Source: a virus (Duplodnaviria > Caudoviricetes). From it: DNA of 27,602 bases. The position numbers and the translations under genes are program-made. Where the stretch lies: positions 1 through 27,602 of the IMG/VR virus record IMGVR_UViG_3300046786_000428. One strand, 5' to 3'. Shown in pieces: positions 5,688-27,602 of the stretch (its first letter is position 1; every line of letters begins with the position of its first letter). A model generated the notes under the pieces. The model made no database searches. It was not told where the DNA came from and worked only from the letters and a program-made list of their open reading frames with translations.

Positions 5688-5716
5688 TTGACCCAACCAT
5701 CCCTCCACCGTATAGT
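5688..5716 (+). promoter_or_regulatory. sigma70-like promoter
   Basis: TTGACC(5688-5693)-17 nt-TATAGT(5711-5716); ATG at 5732. Confidence 0.75.
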
Positions 5717-10955: not shown

Positions 10956-11261
10956 ATGGAAAACACGACACCAGACCAACAAGAAGCCTTTGTCTATCAA
11001 ACGAAACAATGGCGCAAAGACCTAGACGAATGCCTCCAGCGCCTTAAGCAAGGCAGCGACAAGGGATACACTGGAGAGCGTGCGCCAGATCATCCCGTGC
11101 GCTCGTCTCGCGAACGCAGCTTGGCCGTGACCAAGATTGAGGAGGCAATCATGTGGCTCGGCATGGACCTCAAAGCACAGAACACACCGAATCCCTACCC
11201 ACACAGCAAAGACCCAACATCACTTGTGATCGATCCAACAGCTGATGGACTGAAAATGTAA
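10956..11261 (+). CDS. Acb2/Tad1-hairpin-like protein (candidate immune-signal sponge)
   Basis: helix..LQRLKQG..SSRERSLAVTKIEEAIMWLG resembles the SRE.S/A.A.T..EEA.MW helix of Tad1-type proteins. Confidence 0.55.
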   Translation: MENTTPDQQEAFVYQTKQWRKDLDECLQRLKQGSDKGYTGERAPDHPVRSSRERSLAVTKIEEAIMWLGMDLKAQNTPNPYPHSKDPTSLVIDPTADGLKM

Positions 11262-11679: not shown

Positions 11680-13947
11680 ATGGAACTTACCACCGCCCTC
11701 AACAATTACGCGCCACCAGTCGTTGATACGCAGGGTGTGCCACTAAAACGCCGCATTCAGTCTGTTGATGGCGCTCGATCCCTTTGGTTCCGTATGCAGC
11801 AGGCGGACCTTGCCAGCAATCAGCAGATGGCAAAGGTGCAAGCAATGGTGGACGGCAGGGAGCCTTACGACCCGGCGATGCTCCAAAAACAGGGCTTGGG
11901 CTACATGTCCAACTTCAATCCGGGCGATGCGAAGAGCTTCCTCGACCAGTCTGTTGCCGCCTTCATGGACCTCATCACCGGCTCTGAAGGCCTGATTGAT
12001 GTCCAGACCAAGTATGGCGACATTTCGGAGCGCCAGAACATTTCCCAGCGGATTTCCCTGCATCTGAGCCGGACAATTCGTAACTGGCCTGAGTTTTTCT
12101 ACCGCTACGCCTTCATTCCGCACTACCGGACTCTGCACGGAACCGGAATTGCCTATTTTCCCGATCCGAATAACTGGCAATGGGACGTAACCAGCCTGAG
12201 TTACCTGAAAATCCCCCGCCAGACACGCACCTGTGAGGACGCGATTCAGTATGCGGCGATGAAGAAACTGGAGCAGCCAGACCAGTTGATGAAATACATC
12301 ACGCTTGGTCAGTATGCCGAGGATGAAGGGTGGAATATCGACGCCTTGAAGCGGGCGATGCAGAATGCCTATCCGCAGATCATCGACCCCTACAACTGGA
12401 TGGACTGGGAGCAGCGTTGGAAGAACAACGACCTCGTTTTGGGCGAGACTGGCCCTACCATCCCGCTGATTTACATGTGGATTCGCGAGAACGACGGCAC
12501 CATCAGCCTGATGATCTTCGCGGAAACGGGCTTGGCGTCCAACGATGGCACCAAGGAGGACTTCTTGTTCTACAAGCAGGGTGTTTACCGCTCGGCACAG
12601 GAGGCTTTCATCTTCTTCACGAAGGGGATCGGCACCAACGCAACCTTTCACGGTGTTCGTGGCCTTGGCGCTGACATGTTCAACGCCATGCAGCAGCTTA
12701 TGCGCCTGCGAAACAAGGCGGTGGACGTGGCGTTCGCCAGCGGTCCTACTTGGCAGGTTGAAAGCGAAGAGGCGGTCGAGAACTTCCGCATCGTTCCCTA
12801 CGGTTTTGGCTTCCTTGCCACACCGGGGGCCACGTTCGTTCAGCAGCAGCCGCCAGACATCAGCCGCTCGCTGGTTCCTGCGCTGGAAATGCTCCAACAG
12901 ACGGTCGGAACGAACATCGGGCAATACACCTCGACCAAGACGCTCGACACCGGACGCGAGATTTCCAAGTTTGAGGCGATGGCCCGTCTGGACCTCAATG
13001 CCCAGCTTTCGGTCACTGAAATCAACCTGTTCATGCAGCCGCTTGACCGCTTGTTTAATCAGGTGGTGCGACGGATGCTTCGGAAAGGCTACGAACGTGG
13101 TGATCCGGGCGGTCAATACGTTTGGGAGTGGTTTGAACGCTGCCTTGAAGATGGCATTCCGATGGAGGCGCTTGAGAAGATCGACCTGCGCTATACCAAG
13201 GCTGCTCGCACCATTGGCTCCGGCTCCCCTGCCGCACGTCGCCTTAGCTACGAGTCCCTGATGGGTCTGTATCCCTACTACGACGACTACGGCAAGCAGC
13301 AGTTGGTGCGTCTCCAGACCGCCTCTGTGGCTGGCTGGGACATCGCTAATCAGCTCACGCAGCCTCCCGGAGCCGAGCAGCGTCCTCCGATTGATGCTGC
13401 GATTGCGGATTCTCAGAACGTGGCGCTGGCTCAAGGATACGACCAGATGATCCTGCCGAACGAGAACAAGCGGGTTCACCTCGAAATCCACATCGGCAAG
13501 CTGTCGGAATACTACCAGCAGTTTGACGAGGCTGGACAGAATCCGGCGCTTTACGCGGAAATCGTGCCTCCGATGGCGAAGATTTTCGACCACGCTGCAC
13601 AGACGCTCGAAAGCTACACCGGCAACGACGCTCCGTTGTTCCGTCAGCAACTTCAGCAGTTCAACGAAATCATCACGAACGGCACCCGCCACTTGCAAAA
13701 GGAAGAGGCGCGTCAGGCTGAAGAACAGGGCCAGCCTCAACAGGACCAAGGGCCGTCTGAAATTGAGAAGATGATGGCGGAATGGCGCATTAAGATGGAT
13801 CAACGCGAAGAAGAGTTCCGCGCCAAGATGCAGCAGCGCCAGCAGGAGGCTGCTCAAAAGATGGCCCTCAAGCAGCAGGATTTCGCCGCTGACCTGTCCC
13901 GAAAATCCGCAATGGCACAACTCCAACGAGCTATTTCACCCACATGA
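11680..13947 (+). CDS. putative portal protein
   Basis: 755 aa; first gene of a portal-small-scaffold-capsid order; Q/E-rich C-terminal coiled coil like podovirus portal barrels. Confidence 0.7.
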   Translation: MELTTALNNYAPPVVDTQGVPLKRRIQSVDGARSLWFRMQQADLASNQQMAKVQAMVDGREPYDPAMLQKQGLGYMSNFNPGDAKSFLDQSVAAFMDLITGSEGLIDVQTKYGDISERQNISQRISLHLSRTIRNWPEFFYRYAFIPHYRTLHGTGIAYFPDPNNWQWDVTSLSYLKIPRQTRTCEDAIQYAAMKKLEQPDQLMKYITLGQYAEDEGWNIDALKRAMQNAYPQIIDPYNWMDWEQRWKNNDLVLGETGPTIPLIYMWIRENDGTISLMIFAETGLASNDGTKEDFLFYKQGVYRSAQEAFIFFTKGIGTNATFHGVRGLGADMFNAMQQLMRLRNKAVDVAFASGPTWQVESEEAVENFRIVPYGFGFLATPGATFVQQQPPDISRSLVPALEMLQQTVGTNIGQYTSTKTLDTGREISKFEAMARLDLNAQLSVTEINLFMQPLDRLFNQVVRRMLRKGYERGDPGGQYVWEWFERCLEDGIPMEALEKIDLRYTKAARTIGSGSPAARRLSYESLMGLYPYYDDYGKQQLVRLQTASVAGWDIANQLTQPPGAEQRPPIDAAIADSQNVALAQGYDQMILPNENKRVHLEIHIGKLSEYYQQFDEAGQNPALYAEIVPPMAKIFDHAAQTLESYTGNDAPLFRQQLQQFNEIITNGTRHLQKEEARQAEEQGQPQQDQGPSEIEKMMAEWRIKMDQREEEFRAKMQQRQQEAAQKMALKQQDFAADLSRKSAMAQLQRAISPT

Positions 13948-15759: not shown

Positions 15760-16938
15760 ATGGCATGTTCAAACGATATCAATAATTACTTCGTTTCCGA
15801 AGCAAATCGTCTCTCTAGCGATACTATGTATCGTAACTGGGCAACCTCTCCTTGGGACACCGAGGAAATTGTTCCTAAGACCCGTTGGCCTGATGGCATG
15901 GGCGCAACCCCGAACTTCCTTACGTTCGAGCGCAGTATGCCTCTTACGACCGGAATTACTTTCCAAACCTACGGCTTCAATGACGGAGGCGAAGGTGACG
16001 GCGGCGGTTCTTGCACTCCTCCTACGGCTACCATTTATCAAGCCTCTACTCGTCGCACGATGAGCTTGAAAAAGGCCGCTGTCGAATCCGAGCAGATTTG
16101 TATCGAAGACGGTCGTATGGCTTGGGAAATCGTCCAGCAGGGTTCGCACATCCTCCGCAACCTTCAGAATAACACCCGCTACGCTTGGTCCGTCCAACGC
16201 AAGACGGAGTTCACTTCGATTTGCTCCAACAAGGCTGTGGCTGACTCGTCCATGACGACCTCTAGCTCGTCCTTTGGCACCGGCACCATCGGCACTATCA
16301 ATCGTGAGATGCTCGACTACTGGTATGACCGCCTCGTTGCTGATGGCGCTCACCAGAACAACGGTCTTGGCACCAACGAATACGGTCAGCCGGTCCTTCC
16401 GCTGATTCTCAGCCGTGAAGCGCAGGCCACCCTCGTCAACAACGAGACGAGCTTGAACAACATCCGCTGGTCGAACAGCGCCGACAAGCTCCTTGGCCCT
16501 CGCGGTTCCTTCGTGAACCTTGAAGGCTTCAAGCACAAGATCGACATTCAGGCTCCTCGCTGGAATCTGGTTGGCGGTGCTTGGGTGTCCGTTCCGTTCT
16601 ACCTCCCCGCCACCTCGGCTGGTCAGGATGCTGAAGTCAATCCTGACTACTACACTGCTCAGTATGAAGACCTCTTCATCGCCAGCAATCAGGTGGTCAA
16701 GTTTGCCATCCCCGGTGCCTCCCTTCAGGCTGGCCCGATGAAGTTCAAGCCGCAGGATTACCTCGGCAACTTCGAGTGGCGCAACATCCAAGACAACGTA
16801 TGCAACAAGGACGGCAACATTGGCTACTTCCGTGGCATCCTCGGCTACGGCGCACAGCCCGGCATCCCTGAATACGGTTGCGTCCTTCGCTTCCGCCGCT
16901 GCCCGATCAACTGGAGCGTGAACACCGCCTGCTCGTAA
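15760..16938 (+). CDS. putative major capsid protein
   Basis: 392 aa, strongly biased codon use, preceded by the scaffold and its own leader, followed by a strong hairpin. Confidence 0.75.
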   Translation: MACSNDINNYFVSEANRLSSDTMYRNWATSPWDTEEIVPKTRWPDGMGATPNFLTFERSMPLTTGITFQTYGFNDGGEGDGGGSCTPPTATIYQASTRRTMSLKKAAVESEQICIEDGRMAWEIVQQGSHILRNLQNNTRYAWSVQRKTEFTSICSNKAVADSSMTTSSSSFGTGTIGTINREMLDYWYDRLVADGAHQNNGLGTNEYGQPVLPLILSREAQATLVNNETSLNNIRWSNSADKLLGPRGSFVNLEGFKHKIDIQAPRWNLVGGAWVSVPFYLPATSAGQDAEVNPDYYTAQYEDLFIASNQVVKFAIPGASLQAGPMKFKPQDYLGNFEWRNIQDNVCNKDGNIGYFRGILGYGAQPGIPEYGCVLRFRRCPINWSVNTACS

Positions 16939-16963
16939 TCCCGCAACGGACCTAACCTCAACC

Positions 16964-17008
16964 GGGCGGGGTCGGCTTTGACAAGAAGCTGGCCCCGCCC
17001 ATTCTCTT
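16964..17008 (+). terminator. GC-rich hairpin after the capsid gene (weak terminator or mRNA stabiliser)
   Basis: GGGCGGGGTCGGCTT(16964-16978)/AAGCTGGCCCCGCCC(16986-17000), followed by an imperfect U-tract ATTCTCTT. Confidence 0.65.
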
Positions 17009-17014
17009 ACCACC

Positions 17015-17275
17015 ATGCTCACCTTTAAAGCCCCCCAAGGATGGGAAATCCCCCAAGACGCACAGCCCGGCAAACCCTTTTCTGCCGTTGGTACCTTCAC
17101 TGTCGATGACGACGGCAATGTTACCTTGACCGAAATCGACGGTTCTGCCATCGAAGCTCCCGAAATGGAGATGGAGATGGAAGTCGAGGAAGAAGGTGAG
17201 ACTCCTGAAGCTGGTATGACGGATATTGAATCCGCCATGAAGCGAGCCGAAGAAATGGGACTCTTTGCCAAGTAA
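17015..17275 (+). CDS. small acidic protein
   Basis: 86 aa, with an EMEMEMEVEEEGE tract. Confidence 0.7.
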   Translation: MLTFKAPQGWEIPQDAQPGKPFSAVGTFTVDDDGNVTLTEIDGSAIEAPEMEMEMEVEEEGETPEAGMTDIESAMKRAEEMGLFAK

Positions 17276-22765: not shown

Positions 22766-23133
22766 TGCAACGCATCGCTTACATCACGAACGGTTTTATC
22801 ACCAACGTCTCCTTGGCGAAAGACGATTATATTCTCCAAGACAACGAAATGATCGAAACCGATGCTCTTGCTGCTGGTTTCAGCTACTATCAGCCTCCGA
22901 TAGGTCCAAAAAAATGGGAGAACGTCCAAGCCTTCATGGGCGAGTTCACGATGCAGCAAAAAGCTGCGATTGCATTGTCTGTTGATCCCACCGTTGCGGC
23001 TTTAAGGCTTGAACTCACCACTTGGTTTTCTGAGGTTCACGCTGATGATCCCCGTGTTCAAGCTGGACTGGACAAACTGGTTGAGCTAGGAATTATTACA
23101 GAATCCAGAAAGGAGCAAATCGTCACGCCATGA
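22765..23133 (+). CDS. putative tail fibre assembly/chaperone protein
   Basis: directly follows the fibre; FMGEFT..AAI..DP.V..GLD.LV.LGIIT.SRKEQI is typical of post-fibre genes. Confidence 0.55.
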   Translation: MQRIAYITNGFITNVSLAKDDYILQDNEMIETDALAAGFSYYQPPIGPKKWENVQAFMGEFTMQQKAAIALSVDPTVAALRLELTTWFSEVHADDPRVQAGLDKLVELGIITESRKEQIVTP

Positions 23134-23588
23134 AAATCCCCCTCGATACCCAGCATTTTGACCTGCCCGTAGCCTTGGCATACCAAATTGCCGGTGCTCT
23201 TATCTCAGGGTTAGGTATAATTGCCACGACAGCTTACGGGTGTTATGCTAAAATCGCCGCGATTTCACCGGAGGAACTTGCCCTCCAACCTCTGCATGTT
23301 GTGTTGATCTTGTTCATTGTCGCCCTAGCTACTTTTATCGCCCTGATACTCCGGGCGGTGTGGGGCAAAGGTCTTTCTACAATGAACAGGTTTGCTGATT
23401 GTTTGGACGAGCTTACAAAGCTGCTCAAAGATATTGAAAGGGGAATCAAAGACCTTCAAGAGGATCAGAAGAATTCCCTCAGGGATTTCCAAAACCTGTC
23501 ACTTGATGCCCTGAAGGGAGCCTCAAAGGCTTCCAAAAACGACGACTTGACACAGCAAAATCATAAACGTAAGGTTACCTCACCATGA
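23130..23588 (+). CDS. two-TM membrane protein with C-terminal coiled coil (holin/antiholin-like)
   Basis: hydrophobic segments LAYQIAGALISGLGIIA and VVLILFIVALATFIALILRAVW; sits upstream of the lysis genes. Confidence 0.55.
   Translation: MKIPLDTQHFDLPVALAYQIAGALISGLGIIATTAYGCYAKIAAISPEELALQPLHVVLILFIVALATFIALILRAVWGKGLSTMNRFADCLDELTKLLKDIERGIKDLQEDQKNSLRDFQNLSLDALKGASKASKNDDLTQQNHKRKVTSP
23547..23575 (+). promoter_or_regulatory. sigma70-like promoter for the lysis genes, near-leaderless
   Basis: TTGACA(23547-23552)-17 nt-TAAGGT(23570-23575); ATG at 23585. Confidence 0.7.
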
Positions 23589-23770
23589 GTATTATCACTT
23601 ACATCTCTTCTCACTGGGTTGAAATCGGCGCTGCAATCGGCCTCATCATGGGCGGTGCTCGCATCATCGTGAAGCTCACTCCGACTCCAAAGGATGACAC
23701 CATTCTCGAAAAGATCATCGGGATGCTTCGCCACGTTGGCCTTAACGTCACCGACAAGAAGCCGGAATGA
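23585..23770 (+). CDS. putative small holin
   Basis: single TM followed by IVKLTPTPKDD, a motif of small phage holin-like proteins. Confidence 0.6.
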   Translation: MSIITYISSHWVEIGAAIGLIMGGARIIVKLTPTPKDDTILEKIIGMLRHVGLNVTDKKPE

Positions 23771-24006
23771 CCATTCTAGCCGCCATCACTGCCGCTCTCG
23801 AAGCCTTTGCCCAAGCGGCGAAGGCTTTTCCTTTGTGGCTCCAGTGGCAATCGACCAAGGAATGCGAGCAGCTAACCGAACAAATCCTCGACCATGAAAA
23901 CAAAGGCACTCCTCTTGATCGTAGCATCGCTGACAGGCTGCGCTCAAACCTCGCCTACCGTCGCCAACTCAATGCAACTTTACAGTCCCGACACGCTGGA
24001 GATTGA
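23767..24006 (+). CDS. putative i-spanin-like protein
   Basis: Ala-rich hydrophobic N-terminus plus helical remainder; overlapped by a lipoprotein gene in another frame. Confidence 0.45.
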   Translation: MTILAAITAALEAFAQAAKAFPLWLQWQSTKECEQLTEQILDHENKGTPLDRSIADRLRSNLAYRRQLNATLQSRHAGD

Positions 24007-24121
24007 GGCCGGAACGACCATTCAGGCCAAGAACGGCGTTTACAAGGCGCAGGTGGACGAGCGGTGGTATTCGGCAGACCTTTACATGAAGCGCGTGATG
24101 GAATCCTTGAACCCAAAATGA
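23894..24121 (+). CDS. lipoprotein, putative o-spanin (Rz1-like)
   Basis: MKTKALLLIVASLTG-C lipobox; overlaps the 3' 113 nt of 23767-24006 in the +1 frame. Confidence 0.62.
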   Translation: MKTKALLLIVASLTGCAQTSPTVANSMQLYSPDTLEIEAGTTIQAKNGVYKAQVDERWYSADLYMKRVMESLNPK

Positions 24122-24219
24122 TCGCCGATTTCTCGCCCTCGATGTTTGCCGGACTACTGTTTACCGCAGTTGTGCTTGTGATTTGGGGGCTGATAATCAT
24201 CAAGAATCCGAAGTTATGA
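24118..24219 (+). CDS. 33-aa single-TM microprotein (not in ORF track)
   Basis: MIADFSPSMFAGLLFTAVVLVIWGLIIIKNPKL*; ATGA overlaps at both ends. Confidence 0.65.
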   Translation: MIADFSPSMFAGLLFTAVVLVIWGLIIIKNPKL

Positions 24220-24797
24220 ACATCACTAAAGACCACTGGCTTGAAGGCGTGAAGCGTGACGTGATTGCGGGCGGCTCACCGATGCCCATCCGGCGCTTCC
24301 TTGTCATACATTTTACATCAGGAGCAACCGCACAGTCCTCCGTCAATTTCTGGAAGACGCCAGCCGCAAAAGGCGCTTCCGCTCACATCGTTATCGACCG
24401 TGATGGCTCCATCATCCAGTGTCGCCCATTCAACACGGTTTGTGGGCACGCTGGCAAATCGAAATGGAAGGGTTTTAACGGCCTCAATAGCTGCTCGATT
24501 GGTATCGAACTGGCAAACGCTGGCGATGATGCTAAACTGGCTTCTAGGTGGACTAAATTGCCGCTGGTAAAAGCTCGCCACAAGAACGGCGGACCTGTTA
24601 CGGAATGGGAGGCGTATCCCGAGGCTCAAATCAAAGCCTGCACAGAGCTGGCCCAAGCCCTCGTCAAACGCTACAATCTTGATGACGTGATTGGTCACGA
24701 CGACATCGCTCCAGATCGCAAGGTTGATCCGGGTCCGGCATTCCCAATGGGACAGCTTCGCGTTGCGTGTGGATTTCCCGCTGAAATCAAGAAATGA
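24216..24797 (+). CDS. endolysin, N-acetylmuramoyl-L-alanine amidase (Amidase_2)
   Basis: FLVIHFTSG..ASAHIVIDRDG..HAGKS..NSCSIGIELAN..VIGHDDIAPDRKVDPGPAFP; ATG 24216. Confidence 0.93.
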   Translation: MNITKDHWLEGVKRDVIAGGSPMPIRRFLVIHFTSGATAQSSVNFWKTPAAKGASAHIVIDRDGSIIQCRPFNTVCGHAGKSKWKGFNGLNSCSIGIELANAGDDAKLASRWTKLPLVKARHKNGGPVTEWEAYPEAQIKACTELAQALVKRYNLDDVIGHDDIAPDRKVDPGPAFPMGQLRVACGFPAEIKK

Positions 24798-24985
24798 CCC
24801 CAATCGAGCACCTCATGCAAGACTTCAACAAAACCGCTCCCGTCTGCCGCCAGCACAAGGAGCGGCCCAAGATTAGCTTTGACGGCGTGTGGTTTATCGA
24901 GTGCGGCAAAGGCTGCTCAATGCACGATGGCGACAATCCCGGCGTGACGCCAATTATGGTTCGATGGGTGGAGGAGATGAGGTAG
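24794..24985 (+). CDS. small Cys/His-containing protein (possible zinc ribbon)
   Basis: CRQH..WFIECGKGC; ATGA coupled to the endolysin. Confidence 0.6.
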   Translation: MTPIEHLMQDFNKTAPVCRQHKERPKISFDGVWFIECGKGCSMHDGDNPGVTPIMVRWVEEMR

Positions 24986-25004
24986 CTCGCCTCGGTAATT
25001 GCAA

Positions 25005-25616
25005 TCACGGCTGGAGAAAAAGGCTTTTAATTTCGCGAGCAGCCAAAATGACTCGCTCTCCAAAAAGCAAGTATGCCGCGAAAAGATAAAGCATCCCAGC
25101 CAATACCTTGTTTGCGCTCGCCCATTTCAGATGTTTTTCCATCGTTGTCTCTTTTGGTGTCAAAAGAGTCTTGGAAATCATTGTTTTGAGGGCTGAAATT
25201 TCACCCACAAGGTATTCATTGCCACGATTAAGTGGTGACACCGTGACAAGATAGCACTTGATTTCGCCTTGCGTGGGCCAGCGAAGGACATGGATCATAA
25301 CATGGATGGCCTCGCCGCTTTTGGAGCGATATTGCTTGTGCAGGTAGTATTCGTTTCTATCGCCAACCACCACGCCGCGAAGCAACTCTTGATCGTGGGC
25401 AAGGTCTTCGGTTTCCACCGTCAGCTCGGTCCATTTCTTCCCCTTAGTTTGGCCGTGGCCCACAAGCTCAACCGCAGACCAACCCAGCAGCCTTTCAAAA
25501 GACTGGTTAACCCAAAGAATCCCACCATCCTCGGTCGATACAAGCATGGGGCATGAAGTGGAGTTCACCCAATGAACAACCGCGTCTGATTGGTTTTTAA
25601 TCCAAGTGTGGGGCAT
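25005..25616 (-). CDS. PAS-domain protein with C-terminal transmembrane helix
   Basis: PMLVSTEDGGILWVNQSFERLLGWSAVELVG..WTELT...EDL..D..YYLHKQYRSKSGEAIHV (PAS core + PAC), then helix and VLAGMLYLFAAYLLFG TM. Confidence 0.85.
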   Translation of the reverse strand: MPHTWIKNQSDAVVHWVNSTSCPMLVSTEDGGILWVNQSFERLLGWSAVELVGHGQTKGKKWTELTVETEDLAHDQELLRGVVVGDRNEYYLHKQYRSKSGEAIHVMIHVLRWPTQGEIKCYLVTVSPLNRGNEYLVGEISALKTMISKTLLTPKETTMEKHLKWASANKVLAGMLYLFAAYLLFGERVILAAREIKSLFLQP

Positions 25617-25649
25617 TATTACTTCGTTTTGATTTAGGTTGGCGTTGCG

Positions 25650-25877
25650 TCACACCACCACCCTCCTCCCCAGCTTCTTAGGCTCAACCTTGGTGTGCAG
25701 ATTTGTCTCCATGACGATCATTCCAGCCTCGGTCTTGTAAAAGTCAACGACGTATTTGCAGGCGATGCCTTGGTCGAGATTGCGCCGGATCAAACGTGAC
25801 GCCCTTTCAGGTTCAAACACGGATTCGTGAAGTCCTTCGATGATGGCGTCTTCTAGGGTTTGTTCTTCGTAGGTCAT
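25650..25877 (-). CDS. hypothetical protein
   Basis: 75-aa ORF, ATGA-coupled in the minus-strand operon. Confidence 0.7.
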   Translation of the reverse strand: MTYEEQTLEDAIIEGLHESVFEPERASRLIRRNLDQGIACKYVVDFYKTEAGMIVMETNLHTKVEPKKLGRRVVV

Positions 25878-26092
25878 ATCTTCTTCGGTATCCCCTGACC
25901 AAACACCATCTTCGGCTTGCTGACAACCACTTTTGGAGCCTCAATTTTAGGCTGCGGGATGTTGTAGGGCACGCGGTTCTTTGCGGACCAAGCATGAAAG
26001 ACCGTTGGCAGCATTGCATCACCCGTGCAGAGGCAGGAATTGTTCCACAAGGAACGTCCGGCATTGTGGCAGGTGGGGCAGAGGTCAGGCAT
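25874..26092 (-). CDS. hypothetical protein with CxxC..CxC
   Basis: MPDLCPTCHNAG..SCLC; ATG at 26092 overlaps the upstream TGA. Confidence 0.6.
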   Translation of the reverse strand: MPDLCPTCHNAGRSLWNNSCLCTGDAMLPTVFHAWSAKNRVPYNIPQPKIEAPKVVVSKPKMVFGQGIPKKI

Positions 26093-26265
26093 CACTTCCA
26101 CTCATGGTTACAAAACGGGCAATGCCAGCTCCAATGACGGTCGTTTCGGATTTCGCCAATCACCTTCGAGAAGTGCGTGGCGTTGCCGAACAGGTGCCGT
26201 GACTTTTCCGGTATCTCTTTGCCGGTTAGATCGGCTTTGCGCTTGGGGCAGGAGTAGGGTGTCAT
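26092..26265 (-). CDS. small zinc-ribbon-like protein
   Basis: MTPYSCPKR..WSWHCPFCNHEW; start at ATG 26265 chosen. Confidence 0.6.
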   Translation of the reverse strand: MTPYSCPKRKADLTGKEIPEKSRHLFGNATHFSKVIGEIRNDRHWSWHCPFCNHEWK

Positions 26266-26281
26266 ATCCTCAACCTTACGC

Positions 26282-26473
26282 TTATTCGGAGGGGTGGTCA
26301 AGGGGTGTTGTATTCACCAACTTTGGCAAGTCTTGCCTTTTACCAACCTCAGGCACCTCGCAATTACGCATGGCCAAAATCTCGGCGGCGGAGATTCGCA
26401 GGTTGGCGTTAGTGGATTGGAGTAGTTGCCGGAGGGCGGCATCGCTCATTGTGGAGAGGGAGAAGTGTTTCAT
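26282..26473 (-). CDS. hypothetical protein
   Basis: 63-aa ORF starting 8 nt after the upstream stop. Confidence 0.55.
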   Translation of the reverse strand: MKHFSLSTMSDAALRQLLQSTNANLRISAAEILAMRNCEVPEVGKRQDLPKLVNTTPLDHPSE

Positions 26474-27034: not shown

Positions 27035-27467
27035 CACAGCTCGCCCCTTGCGGGGCGAAAAGCATTAAGTCTTTCAACTGGAAGCTGAGAAGTCCGAACA
27101 CTGCCTACCGTGCTAACGTGGGCTGGAGGCTCAATCCCTCCTCAATCCAGAGGAGCCACAACACTTCGGCGCTCGCGCAAACCTTTTACCATGCTGGGAC
27201 ATGGTATCCGCAGCGGGCATTTCATCGCTCTGCGGTAGCCGGGTCTTTAAATGGCGTCTTTTCCGCTTTCACAGAAGTCCACCACATCAAGCGTTTTGCT
27301 ATCGCCGCCATCCACCTTACATTGTTCCCTGCTCGGGATTTATGGGGATTAGATAGCTTCTGTCAGGCGCAATAGCGTTACCCGAAACGCAAAAGGCCGA
27401 CTGATTGCAGCAGTCGGCCTAAGCGGGTTCTCCCGGTTGGTCGGATCACTCCTGCAATGAGAGAACC
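27035..27467 (-). ncRNA. candidate ~430-nt structured RNA / attenuated leader
   Basis: many hairpins on the minus strand, including two GNRA-capped ones (TTCTGT-GAAA-GCGGAA; TCGCCCC-GCAA-GGGGCGA), TACCATG/CATGGTA, CTCCTC/GAGGAG and CCGCAG..CTGCGG; lies directly behind a promoter. Confidence 0.5.
27390..27420 (-). terminator. terminator-like hairpin in the leader (attenuator)
   Basis: minus strand AGGCCGACTG-CTGCAAT-CAGTCGGCCT-TTTG: perfect 10-bp stem plus short U-tract about 60-90 nt after the promoter. Confidence 0.65.
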
Positions 27468-27484
27468 TATTTGAATTCGCCCCA

Positions 27485-27513
27485 ACATTAACAACTTGCC
27501 CTCACCCGCGCAA
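27485..27513 (-). promoter_or_regulatory. leftward sigma70-like promoter
   Basis: minus strand TTGCGC(27513-27508)-17 nt-TAATGT(27490-27485). Confidence 0.6.
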
Positions 27514-27523
27514 GTGATATTCT
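27496..27523 (+). promoter_or_regulatory. rightward promoter (extended -10), near-leaderless
   Basis: TTGCCC(27496-27501)-16 nt ending in TGA-TATTCT(27518-27523); ATG 27532. Confidence 0.6.
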
Positions 27524-27531
27524 CCGAAATT

Positions 27532-27602
27532 ATGGCATCCGACCTCTACCTCTGTCGAAAAAACGGGCGTTTCTTCAAATACGACGCCGTTGAAGCTGTG
27601 TC
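27532..27602 (+). CDS. 5' fragment of a gene running off the window
   Basis: MASDLYLCRKNGRFFKYDAVEAV.. open to the window end, behind a promoter. Confidence 0.5.
   Translation, partial: MASDLYLCRKNGRFFKYDAVEAV

Follow-up and report, generated by a model that had tools for sequence, protein, structure and literature searches.

The window, by which we mean the entire stretch of DNA analyzed, is the 27,602-base record of an uncultured freshwater phage with an estimated completeness of 38%. One of its minus-strand genes encodes a 203-aa protein in which a PAS domain is followed by helices and a predicted membrane anchor (PAS-TM; Table 1). Pfam assigned PAS (PF00989, 33.8 bits against a cut-off of 22.6), PAS_9 (29.9 against 27), and PAS_8 (25.2 against 21.8) to this protein, and no family besides these three. 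We preferred the 203-aa start to the 180-aa database call because W5, Q9, L/V13, and W16 are conserved in the family described below.

An AlphaFold2 model built on the 95-sequence family alignment (mean pLDDT 92.9, pTM 0.71) placed a PAS fold, a five-stranded sheet with flanking helices, at residues ~11–128, followed by helices 132–152, 158–168, 170–185, and 188–201. The Foldseek PDB matches listed were all PAS/LOV-containing chains, with TM-scores by target of up to 0.87. Among the C-terminal helices, 170–185 is the hydrophobic one and those on either side are amphipathic. With 16 uncharged residues (mean Kyte-Doolittle 2.2), this hydrophobic segment is short, and it is kept in the family, with a mean of at least 1.6 in 90 of the 95 members; from the model, this helix is predicted to be the membrane anchor. 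No kinase, cyclase, or DNA-binding output (HisKA, HATPase, GGDEF, HTH) was found in any of the 95 members. The architecture given in the original prediction, a complete PAS domain, a helix, and one C-terminal TM with no output domain, was thereby borne out, the TM as a prediction.

Table 1. Features of the PAS-TM locus and peptidase-membrane modules near PAS-TM genes of other contigs
Feature	Position	Strand	Remarks
PAS-helix-TM gene, accessory	25005..25616	minus	203 aa; Pfam, AlphaFold2 model, purifying selection
PAS domain, residues ~11–128	25233..25586	minus	without DIT motif at end
Amphipathic linker helix 132–152, predicted coiled-coil-like	25161..25223	minus	length variable across family
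Amphipathic helix 158–168 with W165, predicted membrane-interface	25113..25145	minus	model and alignment
Predicted single membrane-inserted helix 170–186, ending at invariant G186	25059..25109	minus	model and alignment
C-terminal amphipathic helix 188–201	25014..25055	minus	model and alignment
Variable slot between two conserved convergent genes	24986..25649		3 other unrelated fillings in 8 relatives
Conserved 63-aa ORF, last of rightward lysis run, left slot border	24794..24985	+	relatives compared
Conserved 75-aa ORF, directly upstream of PAS gene, right slot border	25650..25877	minus	relatives compared
Conserved 75-aa ORF, same leftward run	25874..26101	minus	relatives compared
Amidase_2 endolysin (context)	24216..24797	+	Pfam
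Lysis-cassette membrane genes (context)	23130..24121	+	152-aa TM-coil ORF, 61-aa holin candidate, 79-aa/75-aa pair
Sigma70-like promoter candidate	26273..26301	minus	TTGAC, 17-base spacer, TAAGGT; heads leftward run
Peptidase-membrane module	L040:5791-8648		
Peptidase-membrane module	L029:6456-9410		
Peptidase-membrane module	L058:2601-4503		
Peptidase-membrane module	L078:1532-3880		
Peptidase-membrane module	L017:273-1624		
Peptidase-membrane module	L018:878-3252		

The PAS-TM gene is the final gene of a leftward run and faces a rightward run of lysis genes. In the latter, hydrophobicity and position suggest the roles of the 152-aa and 61-aa ORFs and a spanin-like function for the 79-aa and 75-aa lipoprotein-like ORFs, which overlap each other; no named holin or spanin family matched these membrane genes. 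At 24117-24121, the cassettes of two other loci carry a 1.7-kb block of three genes (332, 133, and 85 aa) that the window lacks (L081, 2493-4182; L083, 2917-4610), and a third locus (L087) has a 282-aa ORF behind the amidase that looks nuclease-like on inspection of its sequence.

The original prediction described the PAS-TM gene as convergent on the lysis cassette. While the two do face each other, the 63-aa ORF stands between the PAS-TM gene and the amidase gene, and the stop codons of the PAS-TM gene and this ORF are 19 bases apart. With the amidase as the query, 22 viral loci were retrieved, and neither tblastn nor a profile search detected the PAS-TM protein in any of these amidase-related loci. 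Eight of them, with amidases 88–96% identical, retain both flanking genes, and their DNA similarity to the window ends exactly at 24985 and 25650. The slot of all eight syntenic relatives holds unrelated DNA and no PAS-TM gene; one filling is common to six loci and two are singletons, each with a small ORF. The sequencing runs gave the same picture: 24985 is joined to 25650 via 174 other bases in runs X13 and X14 and via ~330 other bases in an X12 contig, run X8 has loose ends at both slot borders, and contigs of X5 and X15 continue from the flanks into the PAS gene, part of which is covered by X4. The PAS-TM gene is an accessory (moron-like) gene in a swappable slot and lies outside the lysis cassette of this phage. 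Because the slot is filled differently in all eight relatives, convergence with the lysis run is no evidence of function; it is explained as slot geometry, which corrects the local reading, and a link to this cassette is not supported.

The same comparison bears on the proposal that the PAS-TM protein is an essential, PAS-gated holin of this cassette. It is a small protein with one hydrophobic helix, encoded beside the amidase, and some distant PAS-TM genes lie directly upstream of endolysins. However, the gene is dispensable in the eight syntenic relatives and missing from all 22 amidase loci, it lies on the opposite strand while other holin candidates precede the amidase, and none of the 95 family members matched a holin PHROG, so that we consider this role highly improbable. 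An analogue is the holin T of phage T4 with its antiholins RI and RIII: T is an essential single-pass membrane protein, and through its periplasmic soluble domain a signal can alter lysis time. In contrast to T, the window protein is accessory, its PAS domain is predicted to be cytoplasmic, and it has no holin profile match.

No promoter or terminator was found flanking the PAS gene; a candidate promoter three genes upstream, shared within the run, likely drives it. The site at 26301 is present in the window and in seven of the eight relatives, the eighth locus stopping short of it. The motif is repeated at 23547-23575 (+), before the 61-aa holin candidate, with a near form in four of the five relatives examined, and weaker copies occur at 5688 and 7334 (+). 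This promoter-like motif (TTGAC-N17-TAAGGT), conserved in relatives, is located ~10 bases ahead of start codons and would yield very short leaders. Since it precedes both the PAS run and the 61-aa holin candidate, timing is not readable from it.

Three further regions of the window deserve mention. An extended -10 promoter match (10/12) followed ~110 bases later by a 10-pair hairpin and a T run (27394-27558, minus) lies in a gene-poor stretch conserved in relatives and possibly specifies a small RNA. Long open frames of 727 aa (11743-13926, minus) and 500 aa (15769-17271, minus) run antisense to the portal-like and capsid-like genes and are likely by-products because of high GC3 (0.67–0.71). 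Directly upstream of the portal-like gene, a 101-aa protein (10956-11261, plus) carries an Acb2/Tad1 hairpin domain (PF24729, 30.1 bits; cut-off 27) and is a candidate anti-defence signal sponge.

A phmmer search against 1.84 billion representatives gave 787 matches at E ≤ 0.001; among the best 150, the first 68 were all 176–283 aa long and 43 were long proteins. The family alignment consists of the window protein and 94 of 121 short proteins, the other 27 (near-copies, fragments, apparent frameshifts, and distant types with a different C-terminus) being left out. Of its residues, N37 and G186 are invariant, and G31, E50, W62, D75, G85, Y90, K94, K99, V110, R112, and P114 are at least 90% conserved; PAS_9 matched 89 of the 95 members at E ≤ 0.01. 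An atlas search with residues 128–203 alone gave no usable match. Two motif scans of viral contigs, in which 29 of 29 and 15 of 39 loci were of the family type (four of the latter repeats; the rest comprised 2 long proteins, 1 lone PAS, and 21 without a match), together yielded 40 contigs, and a genome scan gave three matches, all in Planctomycetota MAGs and two of them within the clade of the window. The original prediction of a stand-alone phage PAS-TM protein is thus matched by many viral orthologues.

We examined the relationship of this family to host signaling proteins. The PAS fold is shared with the PAS domains of multi-sensor histidine kinases (PAS, PAS_9, PAS_3), the nearest solved chains being 3bwl, 3mjq, and 8px4, and an Asp..Gly..Tyr..Lys-x-Tyr..Lys pattern in the helix/strand region is common to both. 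Unlike kinase PAS domains, the family has no kinase, has lost the DIT motif, carries W35 and R112-x-P114 and a C-terminal anchor, and forms a separate clade. A quick tree was computed from 92 PAS domains over 115 columns, with many of its forks unsettled. In it, the window protein, 39 family members, and 12 close loci grouped as a single clade (SH-aLRT 99), separate from the 26 kinase domains included. A search of 497–2000-aa proteins returned 23 multi-PAS signaling proteins covering 11–68% of the query, the best identity being 45% over 14% of the query, and none of them spans the complete PAS-helix-TM unit. Among in-gene variants in runs X5 and X15, part of which rest on single low-depth contigs, 19 of 22 were synonymous, compared with an expected 23% (pN/pS 0.05). 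The PAS-TM ORF is a real gene under purifying selection.

These results decide against a decaying fragment of a host kinase, the case named in the original prediction as a truncated kinase lacking viral orthologues. Although kinases often carry such PAS domains, the similar length of the first 68 matches, the synonymous variants, and the failure of any protein of 497–2000 aa to cover the whole unit rule it out for practical purposes. A subtler relation to host kinases is a dominant-negative decoy, in which the tethered PAS domain would pair with those of a sensor kinase or cyclase of the host, damping a stress or envelope pathway. The nearest long relatives are indeed multi-PAS kinases, the placement of the PAS-TM gene differs among phages, and the gene belongs to an accessory run behind a sigma70-like promoter, a setting in which host-takeover genes are often found. 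On the other hand, if the protein mimicked a host target, its sequence should follow that of the target, while the clade lies distant from each of the 26 kinase PAS domains sampled, the identity to long proteins is low and local, and the family-specific residues W35, R112, and P114 are retained throughout the clade. A decoy also leaves the peptidase association described next unaccounted for, and we regard it as unlikely.

From 26 close loci (>120 bits), 12 representatives of 11 lineages were selected. In the original prediction, enrichment beside endolysins would speak for a lysis role. No Pfam peptidoglycan hydrolase was found among 128 flanking ORFs of the 12 close loci. In 7 of the 11 lineages, a same-strand papain-like (six) or subtilisin (one) peptidase gene lies within 4.2 kb of the PAS-TM gene, with small membrane or lipoprotein genes as its neighbors. 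This association has p = 0.002 at a chance rate of 0.2 and 0.02 at 0.3, both the 4.2-kb cut-off and the module having been defined after inspection of the data; the calls in L078 and L058 rest on motifs (leave-one-out E of 0.095 and 0.49), and that in L040 is weak. L024, L028, and L035 have no peptidase nearby (the one in the L035 contig is ~28 kb away), and L041 is cut off upstream. In L040, the PAS-TM gene is the first in a 2.9-kb islet of peptidase and membrane genes amid host-like genes.

The recurrent module combines a papain-like peptidase with small membrane proteins and a lipoprotein-like ORF, and it occurs in phages with no recognized endolysin. Of 11 close virus records, 9 were matched by a peptidase profile, including five from which the profile had been built, while Amidase_2 was found in 1 of 11 and phage lysozyme in 0 of 11, with positive controls included. 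Among 129 ORFs of at least 90 aa in the near-complete carriers G409 and G407, no Pfam peptidoglycan hydrolase, kinase, or response regulator was found, in a survey that could miss shorter or unrecognized lysins. Because these carriers have no Pfam endolysin, the peptidase-membrane module may be their lysis cassette, and for phages of Planctomycetota we regard it as a lysis-cassette candidate. The contig of the window (38% complete) yielded no such peptidase.

Among more distant PAS-TM or TM-PAS loci, 4 of 14 adjoin an endolysin: lysozyme in L037 and L016, M15 in L011, and Amidase_3 in L036. The order is reversed to TM-helix-PAS in L036 and L012. Since the endolysin-adjacent proteins fall outside the clade of the window, PAS and a phage membrane anchor have been joined in more than one form. 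In syntenic large phages, the same site is occupied by PAS-TM genes that branch in separate regions of the tree (L013:5640-6314 versus L027 and L021:5782-6459), suggesting that PAS-TM types can replace one another. A stand-alone ETR1_N gene (ethylene-receptor-type N-terminal membrane domain, E = 3.7e-15; L039:3766-4272) lies directly upstream of a distant PAS-TM gene, with which it possibly forms a split sensor pair; a similar 3-TM gene in L019 (6308-6826) had no Pfam match.

Some neighborhoods suggest instead a late membrane protein that aids virion assembly or is packed with the virion. The PAS-TM gene is coupled to head or tail operons in L028, L058, L078, and L010, and in L028 it is coupled from the portal gene to the prohead protease gene with an overlap of 11 bases. 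However, its position among structural genes varies from phage to phage, it lies outside the structural operon in the window, and it is missing from all eight close relatives, which makes this role very unlikely.

On the family-level context, a role in regulating lysis appears to be the most likely reading, although we hold it tentatively. It is consistent with a selected, same-length family that has no output domain and stands apart from kinase PAS domains, with the peptidase-membrane module in 7 of 11 close lineages and the L040 islet, and with the carriers that have no Pfam endolysin and the endolysin-adjacent distant types. Against it count the opposite strand and the other occupants of the slot in the eight syntenic relatives, the close loci without a Pfam hydrolase, the lineages with no peptidase nearby, the placement of the endolysin-adjacent proteins outside the clade, the lack of a holin family match, the putative nature of the lysis role of the module itself, and the failure to find a peptidase of its kind in the contig of the window, which is 38% complete.

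We tentatively propose that the PAS-TM protein is an optional phage protein of PAS, linker, and anchor that would bind a small host ligand, shift its self-association in the membrane, and tune breach of the envelope in trans. The PAS domain would lie in the cytoplasm, because the sequence has no signal peptide and positive charge precedes the hydrophobic helix. Conservation of D75, Y90, K94, R112, and W62 suggests a polar pocket in which a small host ligand may be bound. Ligand binding would then act through a monomer-oligomer switch and not a phase-locked rotation. The DIT motif couples PAS domains to a signaling helix; a DIT-like motif is present in 1 of the 95 family members compared with 47 of 56 kinase PAS domains, and the linker from PAS to anchor, 67–123 aa long, shows neither a 3.5- nor a 7-residue periodicity. 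With the DIT motif lost and linker length free, a phase-locked signaling helix is disfavored and a self-association switch fits. The target would be the lysis step, as the family context in other phages suggests. In a broader and doubtful version, Planctomycetota phages would lyse via a protease and membrane-protein cassette with no classical endolysin, gated by a portable PAS-TM protein that responds to an intracellular ligand, and the phage of the window would have taken over this gate for control, in trans, of when its amidase-based cassette acts.

The loss of the DIT motif, the free linker length, and the lack of an output domain would also suit a membrane-bound sink for a host signal such as a defence or quorum molecule, or a superinfection blocker, that passes no signal on. 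Counter-defence genes are patchy among close strains, as the PAS-TM gene is, and the same phage encodes the Acb2/Tad1-hairpin protein. A sink would have no need of a conserved membrane anchor, whereas the family retains both the anchor motif and G186; we consider this reading improbable, about on a par with the decoy.

Several known PAS proteins are instructive for a ligand-driven lysis regulator. VqmA-Phage of vibriophage VP882 is a PAS-HTH ligand sensor that acts on qtip transcription and steers the lytic decision (PMC8284805; 10.1101/2019.12.19.881847). The PAS domain of VqmA houses the ligand-binding site and contributes the larger part of the dimer interface, the ligand is contacted by F67, F99, and K101, and K101R abolishes binding (10.1101/2019.12.19.881847). 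The window protein is likewise a phage-encoded PAS protein, but it has no DNA-binding domain and a predicted membrane anchor at its end. Judging from strand position in unaligned sequences, V110 and R112 of the family possibly stand at places that match these ligand contacts of VqmA. The heme PAS sensors FixL, DosP, and FG214 require one or two His ligands, and FG214 shows a ligand-driven monomer-dimer switch (10.64898/2026.03.15.711900). The FG214 switch, as reported there, is of the kind proposed for the window protein, and the PAS fold is common to both. A conserved heme-ligating His was not found among the 95 members: H74 occurs in 7 and D75 in 88, and the best-kept His is H109 (56 of 95), which may serve as a ligand. 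D75 occupies what we take to be the position of the FixL His, the sequences being unaligned. LOV photoreceptors carry a flavin-binding Cys motif, which is absent from the translation; C22 is found in 17 and C121 in 46 of the 95 members.

The phage proteins A0A6J5KZZ3, A0A6J5NY05, R9ZZL0, and S0A2B2 in UniProt/BFVD are small and PAS-like in fold, with 11–17% identity and automatic annotations only. The PAS model was matched by R9ZZL0 and S0A2B2, which are uncharacterized proteins of the Cellulophaga phages phi19:1 and phi18:3 and offer possible tractable systems. In the full-text literature, in which subscription journals are thinly covered, we found neither an account of phage PAS proteins that have a membrane anchor but no output domain nor one of the lysis genes of planctomycete phages.

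Known phage PAS sensors, represented by VqmA-Phage, act on transcription. The existence of a selectively maintained PAS family with a membrane anchor and no output domain suggests that phages read host chemistry directly at the membrane. A natural comparison is available between close strains that carry the PAS-TM gene and those that do not, and the soluble domain of 120 residues is easily screened for ligands. Beyond this phage, the family context suggests a module that may serve lysis in Planctomycetota phages.
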